NCBI RefSeq assembly: GCF_044704955.1
Contig: NC_091984.1
Location: 148,056,001-148,120,000, forward strand
Source of the DNA: Pristiophorus japonicus
Taxonomy: Eukaryota
Direction of reading: 5' to 3'
Length of the DNA: 64,000 nt
How positions within the stretch are numbered: the first letter of the stretch is position 1; every line of letters begins with the position of its first letter. Both the position numbers and the translations under genes were made by a program. The notes beneath the pieces were generated by a model, which saw nothing but the letters and a program-made list of their open reading frames with translations, was not told where the DNA came from and searched no databases. Positions 5,633 through 17,411 of the stretch are shown piece after piece.

Positions 5633-6892
5633 CCTGATCTGGCGGGCCGTAATGGGGGATTTCTCATTCTCAAATGCCTCCATGACCATAAGCAAGTCCG
5701 CTGGCTGTGCCATTTCCACCCCAGTGGTGGGCAACGGTAACCGACTGAGAGCATCTGTGCAGTTCTCTGTGCCCGGTCTGTGGCGAATTACACAGTTGCA
5801 TGCCAACAGCATGAGCACCCATCTTTGGATGCAGGCAGAGGCATTGGTATTTATCGTTTGCTCTCTGAGAACAGCGAAATGAGCGGCTTGTGATCTGTTT
5901 CAAGTTCGAACGTCAGGCCAAGCAAGTACTGGTGCATTTTTTTTACAATGTAAACACAAGCCAGAGTCTCTTTTTCAATCATGCTGTAGGCCCTTTCGGC
6001 CTTGGACAAACTCCTAGATGGATATGCAACCGGTTGCAAAATCCCCAATTCATTAGCCTGTTGTAAAACACACCCGAACTTGTATGATGACGCATCGCAA
6101 GCTAACACTAGTCGTTTACATGGGTTATACAGGACAAGCAGTTTGTTAGAACACAGTAAATTTCTGGCTTTCTTAAAAGCAGCCTCTTGTGAATTCCCCC
6201 ATACCCAGTCGTCTCCCCTGCGCAGTAGCGCATGCAAGGGTTCTAGTAGGGTGCTTAACCCAGGTAGGAAATTACCGAAGTAGTTCAGGAGTCCCAGAAA
6301 CGACGGCAGTTCTGTGGTCACAGCGTGTTCTTGATGGCCTCCGTCTTGGCGTCGGTCGGTCTGATGCCATCTGCTGCGATCCTTCTTCCTAATAATTCAA
6401 CCTCCTGTGCCAGGAATACACACTTTGAGCGTTTCAACCTGAGCCCCACGCGATCCAACCGACTAAGAACCTCATCCATAGTGCTCCATAGTGTCCCAAC
6501 CTGTAACCAATATGTTGTCCTGGAAGACCAGTGTACAAGGAACCGACTTTAGCAGGCTTTCCATGTTTTGCTGGAAGATTGCTGCAGCCGACCGAATCCC
6601 GAACGGGCACCGGTTCTAAATGAATAGACCTTTGTGCGAGTTGATGCAGGTGGGGCCTTTTGAAGACTCCTCCAGCTCCTGCACCATGTAGGCCGAGGTC
6701 AGGTCCAGCTTGTGAACGTCTTCCCTCCAGCAAGGTCGCAAAAGGGCGTCTGCCTTGGGTAGCGAAAAACGGTTCATTGTTACTTTATAGTCACCGCAAA
6801 TTCTAACTGTACTGTCCTCCTTGAGTATGGGAACAATCAGGCCGGCCCAGTGTTGAATTCCACCGGCGCGATGATGCCCTCACGTTACAGCC

Positions 6893-7368
6893 TGTGGAAG
6901 AAAACGATCTCTGTAGTATGGTAAAGGGAAGGGTTAAAATCACTTCTTGCTGATATTGTAGAAATAATGGAGCTAGAGAAAACACCCAAACTTCTTTGTC
7001 TTGAGAAAACAAAAATTGATTATCTGTTCCCTGCATGAGTCTCCTAAAACTGATTATTGACACAGACAGGGAGAAACTGATTATTGACACAGACAGGGAG
7101 AAATTATGCAAGAACAGATAATGTGTGCCTTCCGGGATGACCTTTGTATTCTCGGAGTAATATGATTAATGTTAATGTGTGGAATTTGAAGATAAAACTC
7201 CTCTTTTTACTGTATAAATATGGCGCGGGTTTTCCTGTAAAAGTCAGAGTTCTGCCTTAGTGTGGACTAAGCGGGCTCTCCGAGATATCTCGTTAGAAAT
7301 AAACTTTCTCTCGAAGCACGGCTCTGAAAGTCTCCGCTGAGTTAATTTAAGCTAAAATTTCTTCGACA
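6893..7368 (+). repeat. ERV 5' LTR
   Basis: TGTGGAAG...CTTCGACA; 27-bp U3 tandem repeat (AAACTGATTATTGACACAGACAGGGAG x2); TATAAATA ~7213; AATAAA ~7298. Confidence 0.97.
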
Positions 7369-7373
7369 GATTC

Positions 7374-7392
7374 TGGCGTAGTCAGGCAGGAT
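7374..7392 (+). promoter_or_regulatory. Primer-binding site complementary to tRNA-Ser
   Basis: TGGCGTAGTCAGGCAGGAT versus the complement of the vertebrate tRNA-Ser 3' end, TGGCGTAGTCGGCAGGAT (one extra A). Confidence 0.8.
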
Positions 7393-7713
7393 CTCTAAAA
7401 ACGAGATCCAAAAGAACCAAATTTAACTTTGAAAAGAGAAAAGAGGAATTTTAAGGACCTTCCTAGCTGAAAGGGGGAAGGTACCAAGGCCGTCCTAGCT
7501 AAAAGGGGGACGAGCCACCAAGATCCCTTGAAGGGTGAGGCATTTAAGGTAGCTACCACAAAGAAGCTAAAATAACAAGAAAGCAATAAGGAGACCCCGA
7601 GCTGAGCGGAAAAGAGAACACCGGTGAGCGCTTTGTAAAATATTACTGTATATTTTGTCGGAGTGTCCTTAATTCTCATTTCAGAAAAATCGCGAGACAT
7701 CGCACCCGGAAGA

Positions 7714-9414
7714 ATGGGAAACAGCTCTAGTCGAGCAGGGCGCTCGCGCCCAGCTCCTAGAAAAGGAAAGAAAGACGACCCCTTGACCAAAGGAATGAAA
7801 TTACATTCTAAAACCGAAAAGAGAATCCGTAAGGTAGTAAAGCAACGAGAGAAGGTAGGAGATCCAATTGTGCCGCCCGGCTCGCCGGCGGACACTGTAA
7901 TTAAAGAAACAGGAGATGACCGATACGCGGTAACGTTTAGTAGCGATTTGTACGGTTGGTCTGATGGGGATTGGCCATATGGAGGAAGTTTTAAACTATC
8001 TTTAATTGAGGAATGGAGAAAAATAACCAAGGAAGGAGGGGGAGACCCTACTTGGGACAAGGATTACATGGAAAATTGTTTTAATAAATGGATTGAGGTT
8101 GCTAAGAGACATCAGCCTCCGAAAAATAAAAATTCGGAGAATAAATCAGGAGGAAAAGAAAAGGGGGAAAATGAAAAACCTCCCTCTTATAGCCCTCCAA
8201 ACCTCCCTATCCCCTCAGCACCCACTGTGGGACTTTATCCTCGTATAGAACCCCCAAAGCGAAATAGCTGGCAGGAAATTATAGAAATGGTTATTGCCCA
8301 TAGAGATCAAGCCCAGAGAGAACTAGCTGTCCTCCCGGCCCCACCACCTAATGGAGGAGCCGATGGAGGAAACCCGGAGGTATTAGGAGCAGGGGCTGAA
8401 GCAGCAGAGGGAGGGGAAGTCAATCAGAGATCTGGGATGAGTTCTCGACTAAGGTCGCAAACAACCCCAGCCCAGGCAGAAGCCGACTCTACCCTCCTCC
8501 TCCAAAATCCCAGGGTAATGATAGGAACCACAGCGGTTTTAAAACCCTGGTCCCCGGGAGAGGCCAGAGATATGATCTCTGCCGCCCCAAACCCAGTAAA
8601 GAAACCTATAGCATTTCACAACTGGCTTGAGCAGACATGTACGATTTACAATCCGCTACCGGGGGATATTAAATTATTATTACAAGCAGCCTACGGATCC
8701 TCCTGGCAGGGAGTAAAAGATATGTTCTCGATCCCGCCAGGAGAAAGGGAGGATTGGAGAGTTGATGATACCTTGCTGGACAACGGCAATGAGTCATTAA
8801 CTCACTGGCTGCAACATAGGGGAAAAAATGCAATTCTGAAGGGAGCTAAAAAACATGGGGACATTGGGGAAGTCAACCGCTGTCTGCAGAAAGCGGAAGA
8901 ATCAATGATAGATTTCGCAGGCAGGTGGAAAAATAGCTGGGACGAGCATGCAGGAATACCCTTGGATCAAAACGAACTTTTAGCAGTGCAGACTTTGTTG
9001 AATTGTATGTTACCACAGCATGCCAGAACGTACAAGATCAAGGTCTTGGACTGGCAAGGAAAAAACTGGAAGGAAACAATTACAGTACTGGCAAACATGG
9101 ACAGGGAGGGACTATTTACCTACAAAGATAACAAAGCCAAAACAGCAGGACAATACTATCAGCAGAAAGGAAGAGGACAAGCACAGAATAGAGGAGGGTT
9201 TGGGGGAAGGAGGGGAGGAGGAAGAGGACAGTGGTCCCAGCGAGATCGCTCGCAAGATGAGTGTAGAAATTGCGGAAGGAAGGGGCACTGGGCTCGAGAT
9301 TGTAGGTGCCCACCTAAACAGTTTGGAGGGTTACAGGGGAATTTCCCCGAACCTACACCTCCACTGGCCCCTCAATTTTCCTTTTCTAACCCCAACCCGC
9401 ACCAATCAGCATAG
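7714..9414 (+). CDS. gag: Retroviral Gag
   Basis: ATG at 7714 gives MGNSSS (myristoylation motif); PPSY, PSAP and LYPRI late-domain motifs; single CCHC knuckle CRNCGRKGHWARDC; ends in TAG. Confidence 0.93.
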   Translation: MGNSSSRAGRSRPAPRKGKKDDPLTKGMKLHSKTEKRIRKVVKQREKVGDPIVPPGSPADTVIKETGDDRYAVTFSSDLYGWSDGDWPYGGSFKLSLIEEWRKITKEGGGDPTWDKDYMENCFNKWIEVAKRHQPPKNKNSENKSGGKEKGENEKPPSYSPPNLPIPSAPTVGLYPRIEPPKRNSWQEIIEMVIAHRDQAQRELAVLPAPPPNGGADGGNPEVLGAGAEAAEGGEVNQRSGMSSRLRSQTTPAQAEADSTLLLQNPRVMIGTTAVLKPWSPGEARDMISAAPNPVKKPIAFHNWLEQTCTIYNPLPGDIKLLLQAAYGSSWQGVKDMFSIPPGEREDWRVDDTLLDNGNESLTHWLQHRGKNAILKGAKKHGDIGEVNRCLQKAEESMIDFAGRWKNSWDEHAGIPLDQNELLAVQTLLNCMLPQHARTYKIKVLDWQGKNWKETITVLANMDREGLFTYKDNKAKTAGQYYQQKGRGQAQNRGGFGGRRGGGRGQWSQRDRSQDECRNCGRKGHWARDCRCPPKQFGGLQGNFPEPTPPLAPQFSFSNPNPHQSA

Positions 9415-12400
9415 GGATGCCCTGGAGGTGTAGTGGTACAGGCGGCAACCCTCCGCTTATCTACAGACATAGAAGAGAATCCTTTGGCAGTAATAAAACT
9501 GGGAAACACTGATGTAAAGTTTCTGGTGGATACCGGTGCTACTATGTCTTCTGTACCACCCTCTGTGGGATTACCTGTAAGCAACACTACCGTCTTGAGC
9601 ATGGGAGTGGCCGGTATCCCCCTGAAAGAATTTTTGTCCGAACCTACTAAATTGACAATTGAAGGACACCAAGTAGATAATGAGAGTTTGATAGTCTCTC
9701 AAACAGCCCCTCTCCCCTTATTAGGAAGACAGACTTTGTGCAAACTAGGAGCCACAATATATTGCACAAAGGAAGGGATGTTCATGGAGCTCCCTCAAAA
9801 TAAAATCCATCAGTTCTTTGATGGGATTAAAAGGGAGGAGGGGGAAGATAACAAAGAAAAGGCTGCCCTCTATTGTTGGCAATTGAGTGACAACTTCTAT
9901 TCCCCCCTGATACAGGATATTGTAAAAAACTTAAAAGCTAAATTTGACTCTAATGCGGACGAACTGATGTATATCATCTTAACAAGCTTTGAGGCGGTTC
10001 AGCTTCACTGCACAGCCTGGTACACTCGACAAAAAGCTGAAACTTACCAGTGCTTAATACAGCCCTTTCTAGATAAAGAAGAGATAATAGAAGCTACACC
10101 CCGCATTTATTTCGGACCAGAAGGATTAGGGGTAGCCATGGATTTGACACCCTTACAGCAGAAGCGGTTTAAAGAAGAGAACTCGACACCCCATCTGACA
10201 TTGGCTGTAAAACCGCTGGCGAAACCCAAAGATATGGGTCCGATGATTGTAGAAATAGAAAAGGAGAAGCAGCATCAAGGCTATAGACCTTGGGCAGTAA
10301 TAGAATTACAGAATGTCCAGATAGCATTTATCACCCGTTCCAGGGGAATTCTCCAGTGGAAAGGTAAAAGTTATGCCTCCACCTTTAAAAAACAGCAACC
10401 CCCTGGACAACCGAGCCCTAAGCTGCCAATGGCATTGAATCAAGTGTCTTCTGAACTTTGGGCAAAACATAAGAATCATGTTGGGAAGGTACATTCTGCA
10501 GCACCCCACCGGGTACGACTGATAAAGAACGCCGTGTTACCAAGCATTAAGCAGTACACACTGCCTCCAGAGGCAGAAGATGGGATAGAGCCAGTCATTT
10601 CTGCATTGTTGGAACAAGGAGTTCTAGAAAAGACACAGAGCCCGTGTAACACTCCGATACTGCCCATACCAAAGGTTAATAGGCCGAATGAGTGGAGATT
10701 TGTGCAAGATCTAAGAGCTATTAATAAGATAGTAGTCCCTATCACCCCTGTGGTACCGGACACCAACATTGTGCTATCTGCCATCCCACCAACAGCAACT
10801 GTCTTTACTGTGATAGATTTGTGCTCAGCCTTTTTCTCCATCCCAGTAAATCAAGAGAGTCAGTATCTGTTTGCTTTCACCGACAAGAAACAGCAGTACA
10901 CATGGACCCGGTTGCCCCAAGGGTACACCGAAAGCCCCGCAGTATATGCAGCAGCAGTAAAAAGAGACCTAGAAGACTGTTTATTATCAGACCAGTCTGT
11001 ACTGTTACAATATGCGGATGATTTGCTTGTGGCTTCCAGCCACGGATACAGATGCATGCAAGATTCCCTGAAATTATTACAACACCTATGTGAAAGAGGG
11101 CACCGAGTATCATTACAAAAGCTACAATTTTGCCAGACTCAAGTCCAGTACCTGGGTTTCCACATATCTCAAGGGCAGAGGCAGCTAGGACCCGAAAGAA
11201 TTCAGACTATTCAGAGTATCCCCATACCAAAGACAAAAAAGGATATTTTGTCTTTTTTGGGGATGGTTGGGTACTGCAGACAGTGGATCCCTGATTATCG
11301 AGAATGGGATGCGGTCCTAAGATCAGCTGCCCTAAATGATGCCCCACCCAAGGTAGAGTGGACCCCAGAGAGGGAGGAGGTGTTTGAACAGTTAAAGAAA
11401 GCTATCACTAACGCTCCGGCATTGGGACTTCCAAACTATTCTAAACCCTTTCAGATGTATGTGAATGAGAAAGAAGGATTTGCAACGGCGGTATTAACCC
11501 AAGAACATGGTGGGGGAAATAGACCAGTGGCCTATTATTCGGTTTTACTTCCTCCAGTAGTGAGGGGAATGCCAGCATGTCTACGCGCTGTAGCCGCTAC
11601 TGCGGTCATGGTGGAGAAGTCAGTACCTATTGTTTTGGACTATCCGTGTACTGTCGTTACAGCTCATGCAGTGCTATTACTATTGAACTCTGCCGCCACC
11701 CAGCATTTCACAGCATCTAGAAGAACAGGTTATGAAGTACTGCTGCTATCACACTCTAACTACACCTTTCAACGCGCGCCGATAGTAAACCCCGCCACTT
11801 TTGTTCCCACTAGAGAAATAGAGGATCCAGACCAGCATGACTGTCTGTTAACAGTGGAATTAGCCACCTTGCCGAGACCAGATTTGCTCACAGAGCCCAT
11901 GGACAATCCTGATCTCATTCTCTATACGGATGGGTCATCGTACAGACCATCAGATAATTTGCTTTTGTCAGGCTATGCAATTGTAAGCCCCCATGAAACT
12001 GTTGAAGCATTTGCCCTGCCTCCTGGAACCTCGGCTCAGGCTGCTGAATTATTTGCCCTCACCAGAGCTTGTATAATAGCAAAAGATCAAACTACCAATA
12101 TCTATACTGATTCTAGATATGCATTCGGTGTGGTCCATGATTTTGGACAACTATGGAAAAACAGAGGCTTTATCACCTCTGGTGGAAAGCATATTAAGCA
12201 CTCTCAATTGGTGCTTAATCTATTAGACACCATTCAGTTGCCAAATAAGGTAGCCGTTATCAAATGTGCAGCACACACAATCGGTGAGGATGAAGTGTCA
12301 GTGGGAAATAGGAGGGCTGATGAAGCAGCCAAACAGGTCGCTTCGGCACAGACAGACTGCCTTCAAGCAGTCTCAGTCACCCTTCCACAGACACTTGACG

Positions 12401-13548
12401 TCCAACTACTTAAAACAGCCCAACAACAAGTTACTATGCAAGAAAGAAGGACTTGGGAAAACCAGGGTTGCTTTCTAAAAAATGACATTTGGTATCACCC
12501 TGATGGGCGAACTGTTTGCCCTAGATCTCTATTCTTGCCCCTGTCTCGCCTAGCACACGGTCAGGCTCACATGGGCAAAGGAGGGATGATGCATGCTATT
12601 AATGCACAGTGGTATGCACCAGGAATAACAGTGGTAATTGAAAAAGTTGCTAGAACATGCCAAATTTGTCAACAAAATAACAGAGGTAAAACACCTGCTG
12701 AATATGATCATCTACCCCAGCCAAGTATGCCCTTTGAAAATTTGCAAATTGATTTTGTCCACATGCCTCCAGTATCAGGTTTTAAGTACCTATTAGTCAT
12801 AGTAGACATGTTCACAAGGTGGGTAGAAGCGTACGCCACGAGGAGAGACGATGCCCGAACAGTAGTAAAGATTCTATTTAAAGAAATAGTACCAAGATAT
12901 GGGATACCTATGGGAATCAACAGTGACAGGGGAACACACTTCACCGGAAAAATAGTGCAAAATCTTGCAGAAGCGTTAGGTTTCCAGTGGAAGTTACATA
13001 TACCATATCAACCTCAGTCTTCAGGAATAGTAGAGAGAGTAAATGGGATAATAAAATCTACCCTTACCAAGGTATGTAAGGAGACAGGATTAAAATGGCC
13101 AGACGCCCTACTGTTGGTACTATATACATTAAGAAACCAGAAAAAACGAAACACTGGTTTGACACCGCATGAAGCCTTATTGGGAAGGCCAATGCCTACC
13201 GGAGTAAAACCACCACTGGTAGCGGAAAAGGTAGCATTAATTTGGAATGATGAAAAATCACTAAAGTATGCTCAGGCCATGTGTAAAATAGCAAGAAGTC
13301 TGCATGAACAGATAAAGCAGACACAGGTGCCCCTGTTGGAAGGAAATATGCACCCATTCAAGCCAGGAGACCAAGTGTTAGTGAAAACATTAAACAAAGA
13401 ATCTTTTTCTCCTAGGTGGAAAGGACCGTATCAGATAATTCTCACGACGAGAACGGCATTGAAATTGGAAAAGCATCCAAACTGGGTGCATGCAACCCGT
13501 TGTAAATATTACTTCCCCAACAAATCACAGCCAAAAGAAGAGACATAG
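9415..13548 (+). CDS. pol: Retroviral Pol (PR - 2H phosphoesterase-like insert - RT - RNase H - IN), in frame with gag after TAG
   Basis: FLVDTGA; LPQGY..QYADD; YTDGS/SAQAAEL/YTDSRY; HHCC, QIDF..SDRG..VER and WKGPY. No stop codon in ~1377 codons. Confidence 0.96.
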   Translation, partial: GCPGGVVVQAATLRLSTDIEENPLAVIKLGNTDVKFLVDTGATMSSVPPSVGLPVSNTTVLSMGVAGIPLKEFLSEPTKLTIEGHQVDNESLIVSQTAPLPLLGRQTLCKLGATIYCTKEGMFMELPQNKIHQFFDGIKREEGEDNKEKAALYCWQLSDNFYSPLIQDIVKNLKAKFDSNADELMYIILTSFEAVQLHCTAWYTRQKAETYQCLIQPFLDKEEIIEATPRIYFGPEGLGVAMDLTPLQQKRFKEENSTPHLTLAVKPLAKPKDMGPMIVEIEKEKQHQGYRPWAVIELQNVQIAFITRSRGILQWKGKSYASTFKKQQPPGQPSPKLPMALNQVSSELWAKHKNHVGKVHSAAPHRVRLIKNAVLPSIKQYTLPPEAEDGIEPVISALLEQGVLEKTQSPCNTPILPIPKVNRPNEWRFVQDLRAINKIVVPITPVVPDTNIVLSAIPPTATVFTVIDLCSAFFSIPVNQESQYLFAFTDKKQQYTWTRLPQGYTESPAVYAAAVKRDLEDCLLSDQSVLLQYADDLLVASSHGYRCMQDSLKLLQHLCERGHRVSLQKLQFCQTQVQYLGFHISQGQRQLGPERIQTIQSIPIPKTKKDILSFLGMVGYCRQWIPDYREWDAVLRSAALNDAPPKVEWTPEREEVFEQLKKAITNAPALGLPNYSKPFQMYVNEKEGFATAVLTQEHGGGNRPVAYYSVLLPPVVRGMPACLRAVAATAVMVEKSVPIVLDYPCTVVTAHAVLLLLNSAATQHFTASRRTGYEVLLLSHSNYTFQRAPIVNPATFVPTREIEDPDQHDCLLTVELATLPRPDLLTEPMDNPDLILYTDGSSYRPSDNLLLSGYAIVSPHETVEAFALPPGTSAQAAELFALTRACIIAKDQTTNIYTDSRYAFGVVHDFGQLWKNRGFITSGGKHIKHSQLVLNLLDTIQLPNKVAVIKCAAHTIGEDEVSVGNRRADEAAKQVASAQTDCLQAVSVTLPQTLDVQLLKTAQQQVTMQERRTWENQGCFLKNDIWYHPDGRTVCPRSLFLPLSRLAHGQAHMGKGGMMHAINAQWYAPGITVVIEKVARTCQICQQNNRGKTPAEYDHLPQPSMPFENLQIDFVHMPPVSGFKYLLVIVDMFTRWVEAYATRRDDARTVVKILFKEIVPRYGIPMGINSDRGTHFTGKIVQNLAEALGFQWKLHIPYQPQSSGIVERVNGIIKSTLTKVCKETGLKWPDALLLVLYTLRNQKKRNTGLTPHEALLGRPMPTGVKPPLVAEKVALIWNDEKSLKYAQAMCKIARSLHEQIKQTQVPLLEGNMHPFKPGDQVLVKTLNKESFSPRWKGPYQIILTTRTALKLEKHPNWVHATRCKYYFPNKSQPKEET

Positions 13549-13681
13549 AACTAGGACGTACTACGGTTACCTACCCGAGAAGACGGCCATCTTCTCACCA
13601 AAGAACTGTACTGACCCCTCTTTTGTGACCCTTCGCAAGGGTACATTGAACCTAAAATAAGACACCCAGAGTTCAGGCCAG

Positions 13682-13828
13682 ATGTCAGAACTTGCTTGTA
13701 TGCCAATTTGGGCCTTTATTATTTGGATCACTGTTACCCTCGTGCTTGCGTGCTGTTATTTTAACAAATTAATACAGGAGTGTTATAGAAACAGAGAAAA
13801 AAGGGAAGATGAGGCGGAAAAGCTGTAA
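13682..13828 (+). CDS. Putative 48-aa single-pass membrane accessory protein overlapping the env start
   Basis: Hand translation MSELACMPIWAFIIWITVTLVLACCYFNKLIQECYRNREKREDEAEKL*; shorter than any ORF in the supplied track; preceded by a splice-acceptor-like site at ~13639. Confidence 0.55.
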   Translation: MSELACMPIWAFIIWITVTLVLACCYFNKLIQECYRNREKREDEAEKL

Positions 13829-15296
13829 GCGGACATTGGGCATTCTGATCATTTTAGCAGTAGGAAGAGTCAGACAGGAAGAAGGAAAAGAATGGAAGGG
13901 AGATATGGAGTGGGAAAGAAGTGATAGGTCAGAACGGCAAGATAACTTTGTATGCCCAGAAGGAAAAAATTGTAAAATAGGGAACTTCACAGTAATGTGC
14001 AAAGCTTGTGGAGTGGGGAAAGGCATAAAAATAAGAAATGCCTGGGATGAAGGATTACAGCAATTGCAGGTATCAGGTTATATCACAGACGAAATGACCT
14101 GGGGGCAGAATGAAAAGATAGAGAAGGAAATAGAAAACCTAATGAAGGAACAAAAGGAAGTAAATAAGTACACCCATTGCATGTTCAGGGAGATGATCAG
14201 ACAGTTACTGAGAGCCGAGCTAGAAAGGAAAGTACTATCCTTCCATGCTAACACATGGGAGAGATTACTGGAAATCAATCAGAAAGATAAACTTCTAAAT
14301 TTAACCATTAAACCCCAAGAAAAATATACTGGTTGCGATTTAAAAGGATGTAACATCACTATGGAAATAGTAAATAAGACAAAAGGAGAAATATGGTGTC
14401 AGTTCCAAGTAATACCCCAGTTGTTCGGACGAAACTTCTGGTACCCAGAATTTAAAGGAGACTGGGTTGATGAAAAGAATCTAACACATCACGACAGGGG
14501 ATGTGCTAGGTGGCCGTTCGGAATGGTGTGTCCCTATCAGACTGCCATACACGAACCATGCTCTCTACAGCACCCCACTGGAATATGTAGATGGGAACTA
14601 AAACCAACCAATGACACCGATATTTCTGAAGTAGGACAGAATGAGGTCTGCCTGACGGGAAATAGACCTGTCTACCTGGACGGAATTCTGTATAAACCCC
14701 CCATTAATACATGTGTGAGAGAAGTCTACACCCTGTATGATCCAGAAGAAAGAAGAACTTATACTTTTGGGCAGTGGCAGAATGTAGTAAAATATCTGTC
14801 TGTGCACAAAATTGATCCTTTACCCCCTGTAATTAATTTGACCAGATTGCACAATTTGATAAAAAATGACAAACAAATAGAGGAGGCTCTGTCCAAAAGG
14901 GGCCAAGACATCCACCAGTTCAAAATAGAAATGAGTTACAAGAAGGGACAACTAGTAAGAATCGCGAATGCAGTCACCTCCCTGACAGTACACCACTGGT
15001 GGGATGTGTTTTCCGGATGGTCCCCCAAAGCTTCAGCAGTACTGAAGCTTGCTATATACCCCATAGTAATCGTAGGTGTGGTTATGCTTATATTACTAAT
15101 AATCATGTGTGGGATGTGGATAAAAGTAAAAAGGCTAATTAACCAGGTAATGGGCCTAGTATCCCAAGTAGAAGGGAAAAGTATGTTTGTGAAAGGAAGG
15201 TTAAGCCGCATAGAAGAAAAATTAGATGAATATGACGAAGTAGAATGCCTCAAGATGCGACCCTACCCCGAAGGATATGAACCCCCTTTTCAATAA
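13809..15296 (+). CDS. env: Envelope-like glycoprotein (class III/ERV-S-like TM region) with no obvious furin site or fusion peptide
   Basis: Signal-like N-terminus, N-glycosylation sequons, Cys-rich ectodomain, HHWWDVFSGWSP before a long TM helix; lies just before the PPT and 3' LTR. Confidence 0.85.
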   Translation: MRRKSCKRTLGILIILAVGRVRQEEGKEWKGDMEWERSDRSERQDNFVCPEGKNCKIGNFTVMCKACGVGKGIKIRNAWDEGLQQLQVSGYITDEMTWGQNEKIEKEIENLMKEQKEVNKYTHCMFREMIRQLLRAELERKVLSFHANTWERLLEINQKDKLLNLTIKPQEKYTGCDLKGCNITMEIVNKTKGEIWCQFQVIPQLFGRNFWYPEFKGDWVDEKNLTHHDRGCARWPFGMVCPYQTAIHEPCSLQHPTGICRWELKPTNDTDISEVGQNEVCLTGNRPVYLDGILYKPPINTCVREVYTLYDPEERRTYTFGQWQNVVKYLSVHKIDPLPPVINLTRLHNLIKNDKQIEEALSKRGQDIHQFKIEMSYKKGQLVRIANAVTSLTVHHWWDVFSGWSPKASAVLKLAIYPIVIVGVVMLILLIIMCGMWIKVKRLINQVMGLVSQVEGKSMFVKGRLSRIEEKLDEYDEVECLKMRPYPEGYEPPFQ

Positions 15297-15331
15297 AGAA
15301 AAAGAAACTGTGTTGATCGGTTATAAAGATC

Positions 15332-15345
15332 AACAAGGAGGGAGT
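15332..15345 (+). promoter_or_regulatory. Polypurine tract
   Basis: AACAAGGAGGGAGT directly before the 3' LTR TG. Confidence 0.8.
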
Positions 15346-15821
15346 TGTGGAAGAAAACGATCTCTGTAGTATGGTAAAGGGAAGGGTTAAAATCACTTCT
15401 TGCTGATATTGTAGAAATAATGGAGCTAGAGAAAACACCCGAACTTCTTTGTCTTAAGAAAACAAAAACTGATTATCTGTTCCCTGCATGAGTCTCCTAA
15501 AACTGATTATTGACACAGACAGGGAGAAACTGATTATTGACACAGACAGGGAGAAACTATGCAAGAACAGATAATGTGTGCCTTCCGGGATGACCTTTGT
15601 ATTCTCGGAGTAATATGATTAATGTTAATGTGTGGAATTTGAAGATAAAACTCCTCTTTTTACTGTATAAATATAGCGCGGGTTTTCCTGTAAAAGTCAG
15701 AGCTCTGCCTTAGTGTGGACAAAGCGGGCTCTCCGAGATATCTCGTTAGAAATAAACTTTCTCTCGAAGCACGGCTCTGAAAGTCTCCGCTGAGTTAATT
15801 TAAGCTAAAATTTCTTCGACA
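15346..15821 (+). repeat. ERV 3' LTR
   Basis: Same length as the 5' LTR; ~7 substitutions counted by eye. Confidence 0.97.
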
Positions 15822-17411
15822 CAGCCTGTCCAGCTCGATTTCCACTTTTTCACGCTTCATGTACGGTACCGCCCGAGCCTTGTGGTGGATCGGTCGCGTA
15901 CCAGGAACCAAATGGATCTGCACTTGCGTCCCCGAGAAACTTCCAATGCCTGGCTCGAATAACGATGAGAACTTGCTTAGAACCTGGGTACATGCGGTGT
16001 CATCAACTGACGAAAGCGCTCGGATGTTGTCCCAGTTCCAGCGGATTTTCCCCAGCCAGCTTCTGCCAAATAACGTGGGGCCATCCCATGGCACAATCCA
16101 TAGCGGGAGTTCGTGTACTGCTCCATCATAGGAGACTTTGACTTCAGCACTGCCAATTACCGAGATTAGTTCCCTTGTATAAGTCCTTAACTTCGTGTGA
16201 ATGGGGCTGAGCTTGGGCCTGTGTGCAATGGCTGCAGAACAATGGGACACTTCCAACGAATGTGCAGGTGAGCTACAAACCCTGCAAACCCTGCAAATTA
16301 CCACGTTGCAGAGGAAGATCGGTCCACAGTGGAGCAGACAGATCTGGGTGCCTTCTTCCCCCACAGCCTGTCGAAGGCTGTTTTACTCATTATGGACTGA
16401 CTTGCTCCCGTGTACCGCTCCATTGACACTGGAATACCATTCAGTTCAACTTTCAACATTATTGGTGGGCATTGCGTCGTGAACGTGTGTACCCCATACA
16501 CCTCTGCCTCCTCAGTATGAGTTTTCAATTCCATCTGATCCACTGTGGACCGATCTTCCTCTGCAACGTGGTGGTTTGCAGGGTTTGCAGCTCGCCTGCA
16601 CATTCATTGGAGGTGTCCCATTGTTCTGCAACCATTGCATACATAGTGCTTAAAGCGGCATTGATGGGGCCGATGATCACCTCCGCAGCACCAACAGGGT
16701 GTTAACTGCCTCGTATTAACAGATGATGACGGATTCTGGGTCAATTGAGGTCAGGCCACAGCAGCCGGTGTGTACATTCTGCCATGTACATTTCTGCTCA
16801 AAACCGACGTTACTTTATGCACAGTACTGGCCAAAACTTCTTTGTTCTGCGAAATCTGCTTGGTGTTGCCGCTGGTGGACATAAATGCTTAGGCTATCGT
16901 TATGGCTTTATTCAGATTTGCTGTTTCTACAGTCAACAAGCTTGCGAAAGATTGTCTCATGTCCAATGCCCAGTACAAAAAAGTCTCTGAGCATTTGTTC
17001 TCGGAATGCCTCAAACTCACAATGTTCTGCAAGGTGCCTTAGTTCGGTGACGTAGCTCGCCACTTCCTGGTCCCCCGATCGTTGACACGTGTATAACCAA
17101 TATTTCACCATCAAAAGGCTTTCCTTAGGATTTAGGTGCTCCTGGACCAGCGTACACAGTTCTTCATAGGATTTATCTGTTGGTTTAGCCGGGGCCAGGA
17201 TATTCTTCATGAGGCCATAGGTAGTGGCCCTACAGACGGTTAGGAGGATCGCCCATCGTTTGGTTGCATTCTCGTCCCCTTCCAGCTTGTTGGCTAAGAA
17301 GTATTGGTCGAGTCTCTCCACATAGTCCTCCCTATCATCCCCCTCCGAGAACTTCTCCAGGATGCCAACTGTTCTTTGCATTTACGCGCGGTTCGTTATC
17401 TCGTCACCAAT

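Follow-up and report, generated by a model that had tools for sequence, protein, structure and literature searches.

The window analysed here, i.e., the whole stretch of 64,000 nucleotides from Pristiophorus japonicus, holds a provirus that carries a previously unreported gene for a predicted membrane microprotein. The gene stands ahead of env and overlaps it, in a layout like that of vpu and env in HIV-1. Its frame is conserved across many proviral copies of the same genome, and we consider it very probable that it encodes a real protein under selection. As to function, the best overall reading is a trafficking adaptor that resembles Vpu in kind and is unrelated to it in sequence, to which we give a little less than an even chance.

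The provirus and its genes

The provirus spans positions 6893 to 15821 of the window. Its two LTRs differ by 7 mismatches in 476 nt, and its flanks read as a 5-bp target-site duplication (6888-6892 before the 5' LTR, 15822-15826 after the 3' LTR). It is inserted within another repeat, the empty form of which is seen in all three sequencing runs. The respective features are:

6893..7368, + strand, 5' LTR (476 nt), from LTR-LTR comparison
7714..9414, + strand, gag (566 aa, one zinc knuckle), with a TAG end in frame with pol
9415..13548, + strand, pro-pol, 1377 open codons (DTGA, YADD, RNase H, integrase with GPY and MLVIN_C)
13682..13828, + strand, microprotein ORF, 48 aa here, with a hydrophobic segment at about residues 4-25 and a charged, predicted helical tail
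13809..15296, + strand, env, 495 aa in the window copy, Ovex1-ORF3-like with a predicted F-type fold
15346..15821, + strand, 3' LTR, from LTR-LTR comparison

The gag TAG is probably read through into pol. Compared with solved structures, the reverse transcriptase (RT) scores 231 bits against MLV-type RT, 152 against foamy and 101 against Ty3. The primer-binding site (window positions 7374-7392) looks tRNA-Ser-like.

The microprotein ORF in the window copy

Re-reading of the sequence confirms the ORF as described in an earlier note on this DNA, i.e., 48 aa from the ATG at 13682 to the TAA at 13828, with the claimed translation and a 20-nt overlap with env, whose ATG (13809) lies in the +1 frame. 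When the 280-nt stretch is Markov-resampled, 0.12% of 5000 versions hold an ATG ORF of at least 45 aa with a hydrophobic 19-mer. The tail of the window copy is three residues shorter than in the usual protein, by which a dileucine is lost; the same short tail is found in two near-identical further copies. When compared with longer copies, the env of the window copy lacks about 185 internal residues through an in-frame deletion, which covers most of SU, the cleavage site and the fusion peptide. That is, the window copy is a defective member of its family in both its dileucine and its env.

Protein matches are found at no fewer than 150 places of the shark's own genome (65-100% identity), where the match sets comprise 150 scored of 589 candidates and, for a second search, 150 of 632. 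Fetched copies were sorted into the subfamilies S1 (the window's own), S2, S3, S3b, S4 and S5. The usual protein length is 51 aa, with 66 aa in S5.

Splicing and start codons of the env message

Junction evidence comes from contigs of three public runs (X1, X2, X3) of one study, for which the kind of run is unrecorded. The sites discussed in the following are:

7624..7625, + strand, major splice donor GT (joint 7623|13416), with an AUG-free leader exon upstream
7855..7856, + strand, second donor inside gag (joint 7854|13416 in run X3)
13414..13415, + strand, env splice acceptor AG after a pyrimidine tract, within the integrase gene, from junction contigs
13490..13660, + strand, upstream ORF in weak context, 56 aa here, incidental to integrase codons, with unconserved length and start
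13638..13639, + strand, acceptor AG proposed in the earlier note, unsupported

Among the 15 of 23 contig joints listed, GT..AG joints are found at 7623|13416 in X1 and at 7854|13416 in X3, and the 18 of 37 loose ends listed include leader-like ends at 13415 in X1 and X2. Spliced copies stored as DNA could produce the same contigs; they would record the 7623|13416 splice all the same. The donor that had been proposed at 7624 is thus present as GT and used in a GT..AG joint. It is kept in 8/8 confidently aligned copies (15 fetched), and the leader is free of AUGs in 6/6 testable copies as well as in the window copy. The gag-internal donor, seen in one run, would yield a short Gag-fusion peptide when joined to the env acceptor.

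The acceptor AG at 13414-15 is found in 111/120 aligned copies, where the site is also integrase coding sequence. For the acceptor proposed earlier at 13638-39, i.e., the junction 7623/13640, the AG is present in 34/120 copies (own subfamily only) and no use is seen among the joints and loose ends listed, such that this part of the proposal is dropped. The earlier note had held that an env acceptor downstream of 13700 would speak against its reading. Since the observed acceptor (13415) lies upstream of 13700, the ORF is on the env mRNA ahead of the stronger env AUG. A bicistronic layout like that of vpu and env, as claimed before, is therefore found in these runs of unrecorded kind: the spliced env mRNA contains the ORF, which overlaps env and has the weaker AUG.

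The order of start codons has to be corrected, however. The AUGs of the ORF had been taken to be the first two after the splice, but the first one is at 13490, i.e., the microprotein AUGs are second and third. None of the three AUGs between acceptor and env in the window copy (13490, 13682, 13700) has a purine at -3. The contexts given for the two microprotein AUGs are as stated before (CAG-ATG-T and TGT-ATG-C, with pyrimidine at -3), and the env AUG has an A at -3. AUGs with a purine at -3 number 0 in the 393 nt from acceptor to env vs. 11 per kb in pol, and no such AUG is found in this interval for 66/84 copies scored. The AUG of the ORF itself has a pyrimidine at -3 in all 88 loci and in S5. 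Judged from their contexts, the weak AUGs ahead of env would fit leaky scanning.

The ORF at 13490 encodes a basic 56-aa product in the window copy and was considered as a Rev-like gene. This is ruled out by its length of 19 aa in most other subfamilies and by its start, which is often ACG. Within S5 (L200-L217), the only AUG ahead of the microprotein ORF meets an immediate stop, and another stop directly precedes the ORF's AUG. A frameshift that joins the ORF to env was set aside, given that env starts at an AUG of its own, with its own signal peptide, and that no common slippery site is visible by eye.

Conservation and selection across copies

Most of the scored protein matches (139/150) are without internal stop, in a set that leans towards intact frames. 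The env AUG follows the ORF's AUG at +127 nt in 83/88 distinct loci and is in the +1 frame in 88/88. The distance from the end of pol to the ATG of the ORF drifts by subfamily, by non-multiples of three, and is 89-151 nt in most.

Selection was assessed pairwise for 95 copies free of indels, after masking of letters found in a single copy only. Between five subfamilies, codons 2-42 (not overlapping env) show a dN/dS of 0.29 (0.16-0.48, bootstrap over codons), where the interval is optimistic because subfamily pairs have a common history and are thus phylogenetically non-independent. For the same 95 copies, the +1 and +2 frames show 0.94 and 0.73, respectively, and the reverse frames 0.43-0.68. 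Stops per pair range from 1.7 to 6.3 in the five other frames vs. 0 in the frame of the ORF. An earlier run with four subfamilies provides a dN/dS of 0.08 for the integrase control, 0.46 for the N-terminus of env, 0.48 (0.28-0.85) for one spacer pseudo-frame and a non-significant 0.53 (0.19-1.77) for S1 vs. S4 alone.

Replacements at residues 7-23 remain hydrophobic or small. Invariant in 22 variants are M1, E3, C6, P8, W10, F12, I13, T17, V18, Y26, N28, L30, Q32, Y35, R36, E42 and D43. The earlier note had suggested comparing other copies for ORF conservation and dN/dS; in this comparison, frame and hydrophobic segment are kept among paralogous proviruses, with purifying selection. By the dN/dS of the ORF, the element has a selected gene beyond gag, pol and env and is, as had been suspected, a complex retrovirus, although solely in carrying this single extra gene.

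S5 is very young, with 48 matches identical over 51 aa.

Copies with a broken ORF

Among S5 matches, 32/90 carry a TAG, which is located at codon 15 in 7/7 fetched copies, some of which adjoin a long open env. The spread of S5 with this stop implies that the gene is dispensable in cis for germ-line spread, as is expected for an accessory gene, or is supplied in trans. A small further group shares a common stop at codon 25 together with a purine at -3 (3/3 fetched).

We also considered loci selected by env (53 loci chosen from 150 matches, 3 without integrase left out). Half of those reaching integrase (25/50) have an intact frame of 50-51 aa, while the frame is hit by deletions in 13, by stops or frameshifts in 8 and by a short inversion in 4. 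In most ORF-broken loci of this set, env is broken as well. ORF codons ~21-27 are inverted in L127, L133, L153 and L184, which belong to different subfamilies; the recurrence suggests a hairpin-prone inverted repeat. In L183 and L192, what a common deletion has left of the first half of the ORF reads in frame with env.

Protein features and homologue searches

An N-terminal transmembrane helix, as proposed earlier, is predicted for 6/6 variants, with a best 19-mer hydropathy of 2.3-2.6 at residues 4-23, and the structure model is one continuous helix (pLDDT 80). The juxtamembrane CC pointed out in the earlier note is present in the window copy but not invariant (SY in S5, CG in S3b). The topology is probably N-out/C-in, which is favoured because no basic residue precedes the hydrophobic segment; the charge bias across the helix is weak. 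The protein starts with MSE or MPE, has a predicted ectodomain of <10 residues and a net tail charge of -1 to +1, and carries Q-E-x-Y-R in its tail.

The motif D43-x-x-x-L47-L48 (DxxxLL) is found in all five main subfamilies, lies within the env overlap and is lost from the window copy by a deletion. The env AUG falls at D43, and W6 of env overlaps L48. Since env constrains both residues, the dileucine counts as independent evidence only in part. At L47, the leucine is maintained through three different codons, while the residue that env has there varies (S/F/C). The DSGxxS degron is absent from the 22 aligned variants.

No homologues were found among 5.8 billion proteins, searched at lengths near the query with the single sequence as well as with a 22-variant profile. 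Neither Vpu nor any homologue was matched in Pfam (window protein and 22 variants) or in PDB (best E 0.36), and a search of viral contigs returned no relative. The search for the BST2 family gave no match anywhere, with likewise none for the controls. The open-access main texts searched contain no report of the ORF. Weak Pfam matches to WBP-1 (best E 0.0085, 5/22), Hemotin and MLANA were considered as host-gene capture and are read as generic helix-plus-cysteine matches.

Residues Q32, Y35 and R36 (within 31-36; invariant in the 22 variants) look like the first part of an IQ calmodulin-binding motif. The calcium-channel IQ peptide is among the weak, non-significant PDB matches (E about 0.5), which makes it a lead only.

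The envelope

In longer copies, env encodes 680-740 aa that match no Pfam family. A longer natural env shows 109 matches at E<=0.001 among 1.84 billion representatives. Its relatives include chicken Ovex1 ORF3 (24% over 479 aligned positions, E 3e-16) and unnamed proteins of frogs, bichir, owl, koala and sharks; the nearest named relative is from Heterodontus francisci. The env model (pLDDT 64, pTM 0.42) matches paramyxovirus/pneumovirus F, foamy Env and the Env of walleye epsilonretroviruses (WEHV1, E 1.2e-7; WDSV, E 5.6e-7) with good E-values and low TM-scores of 0.2-0.37. On the basis of its sequence relatives and this model, Env is a predicted Ovex1-type, paramyxovirus-F-like fusogen.

A homologous env (about 50% to P0001) is also found in a second, older ERV family of this genome, where it follows a different pol directly, with no small ORF in 12/12 loci read (L141-L152). 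It follows that this type of Env does not require the microprotein. The integrase of the second family is unrelated (about 30% to that of the window element), i.e., distant pol lineages have this Env type in common.

Proposed function and alternatives

If the protein is real and selected, we slightly favour an adaptor as its job. The singly spliced env message (7623|13416) carries the ORF ahead of env, and the microprotein would likely be made by ribosomes that otherwise pass its weak AUG and reach env. Its product is likely a single-pass membrane protein of ~50 residues, oriented N-out/C-in. Helix and juxtamembrane Q-E-x-Y-R face would bind a membrane protein of the host (or Env), while DxxxLL would recruit clathrin adaptors and thereby clear the bound protein from the cell surface. 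Such an accessory role would be useful to the infectious virus and unneeded in cis for germ-line copying. A bolder version states that a shark retrovirus independently invented the vpu/env solution with a new microprotein family, which takes over clathrin adaptors and thereby removes an antiviral protein or a receptor from the surface. We hold this version as tentative, with the balance clearly on the doubtful side.

The fixed 127-nt coupling to the env start and the mRNA common to both genes would also suit a protein that is made together with Env and chaperones, sorts or restrains the F-type fusogen, or enters virions alongside it. A detached leader peptide would be comparable, as would the small membrane proteins that accompany the glycoproteins of nidoviruses. 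The Env of this family is large and rich in cysteines, with a predicted F type, and most deletions that remove the ORF also take the env start. The second ERV family, however, does without such an ORF in all loci read, and within S5, copies stopped at codon 15 have spread with env open, which makes a helper of the envelope unlikely, though worth keeping in mind. The neighbourhood of an F-like gene is likewise reminiscent of viroporins: SH proteins adjoin F in pneumo- and rubulaviruses, and coronavirus E is a further likeness. In such a role, several helices would assemble into a channel for ions or solutes, with the effect of aiding release or dampening innate signalling. The earlier note had suggested a convergent viroporin or restriction-factor antagonist, both of which stay putative. 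Size, a single predicted helix with polar T17 (invariant) and T19, and, for most subfamilies, cysteines close to the edge of the membrane agree with this, but the cysteine pair is lost in a young, abundant subfamily, no channel motif is recognised and the conserved tail motifs favour binding over a pore. We thus rate a channel as rather improbable.

It is also conceivable that the peptide itself has no function and that the ORF is an overlapping uORF which lowers Env output, with its conservation due to RNA signals. Overlapping uORFs are known to divert ribosomes, copies without an intact ORF have spread and the recurrent micro-inversion hints at a local hairpin. Against this stand the excess of synonymous changes, found in the ORF's frame only, the hydrophobic-for-hydrophobic replacements and the lack of any frameshift common to subfamilies; pure tuning of translation is decidedly improbable. 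A cell-cell fusogen of the FAST/sORF2 kind seems very improbable. Small membrane proteins of this kind occur in LTR retrotransposons and fish nackednaviruses, according to the part of PMC11952523 considered, but the shark protein has no glycine 2, an ectodomain of <10 residues and a tail that is not net basic. Moreover, it comprises 51 aa (66 in S5) vs. 67-200, and the element has its own Env. Overall, the Vpu-like adaptor is the reading we retain.

Comparison with known systems

HIV-1 and its simian relatives are known to encode small accessory proteins of the membrane on a bicistronic env message. For Vpu, the sections of PMC8402909 considered describe an env mRNA that is bicistronic, leaky scanning as the presumed mode of translation, and motifs of the form [DE]xxxL[LIV]. 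Measured against these sections and those considered of PMC3315493, the shark protein resembles HIV-1/SIVcpz Vpu as a small, N-terminally anchored membrane protein (predicted here) whose gene precedes env on the env mRNA and overlaps it, with presumed leaky scanning (PMC8402909; PMC3315493). The acidic dileucine in the predicted helical tail would be a further likeness, where the motif falls inside the env overlap and is absent from the window copy. It differs in that it has no sequence match to Vpu and no DSGxxS, and its element is class I-like (gamma/epsilon-type pol) with a predicted F-type Env rather than a lentivirus. Vpu is also longer, with about 81 aa vs. about 51 aa.

The env of snakehead retrovirus (SnRV) starts upstream of gag, whereas the leader in the window is without AUG. 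Compared by description only, ORF1 of this fish retrovirus has 52 aa and is expressed from a subgenomic mRNA (PMC12193657, in the part considered). Homology to SnRV ORF1, if present, would place the shark protein in a known kind. The epsilonretroviruses WDSV and WEHV have an Env that resembles the shark Env model; their accessory genes lie before gag and after env. SH proteins of pneumo- and paramyxoviruses as well as FAST/sORF2 proteins are small and hydrophobic too, without sequence match to the shark protein, which also misses the FAST hallmarks.

Ovex1 has a homologous Env, for which the sections considered of PMC2717909 give neither CX6CC nor an immunosuppressive motif. It differs in that these sections report no obvious accessory ORF and a Gag without zinc finger (PMC2717909). 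Lokiretroviruses share an F-like Env with the shark element, as far as the respective part of PMC7947760 describes them. Their elements carry at most smc, and their RT is sister to that of all other retroviruses, while the shark RT scores far higher with MLV-type RT than with foamy or Ty3, which, by these scores, would argue against such a sister position. The excerpts considered of an earlier report on shark ERVs (Han 2015, PMC4422223) contain no mention of the ORF or of accessory genes.

A selected, unrelated case in a young and abundant shark family indicates that this layout can come about a second time and that, in the ERVs of fish, genes of this kind lie hidden below the thresholds of annotation. 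Many copies of an F-type retroviral envelope that has been little studied are available from the family as well, and the partner of the microprotein would point to antiviral defences of cartilaginous fish. If the independent invention of the vpu/env solution is true, the shark protein would be the first case of a Vpu-like antagonist beyond the primate lentiviruses and could lead to a restriction factor, as yet unknown, in cartilaginous fish.
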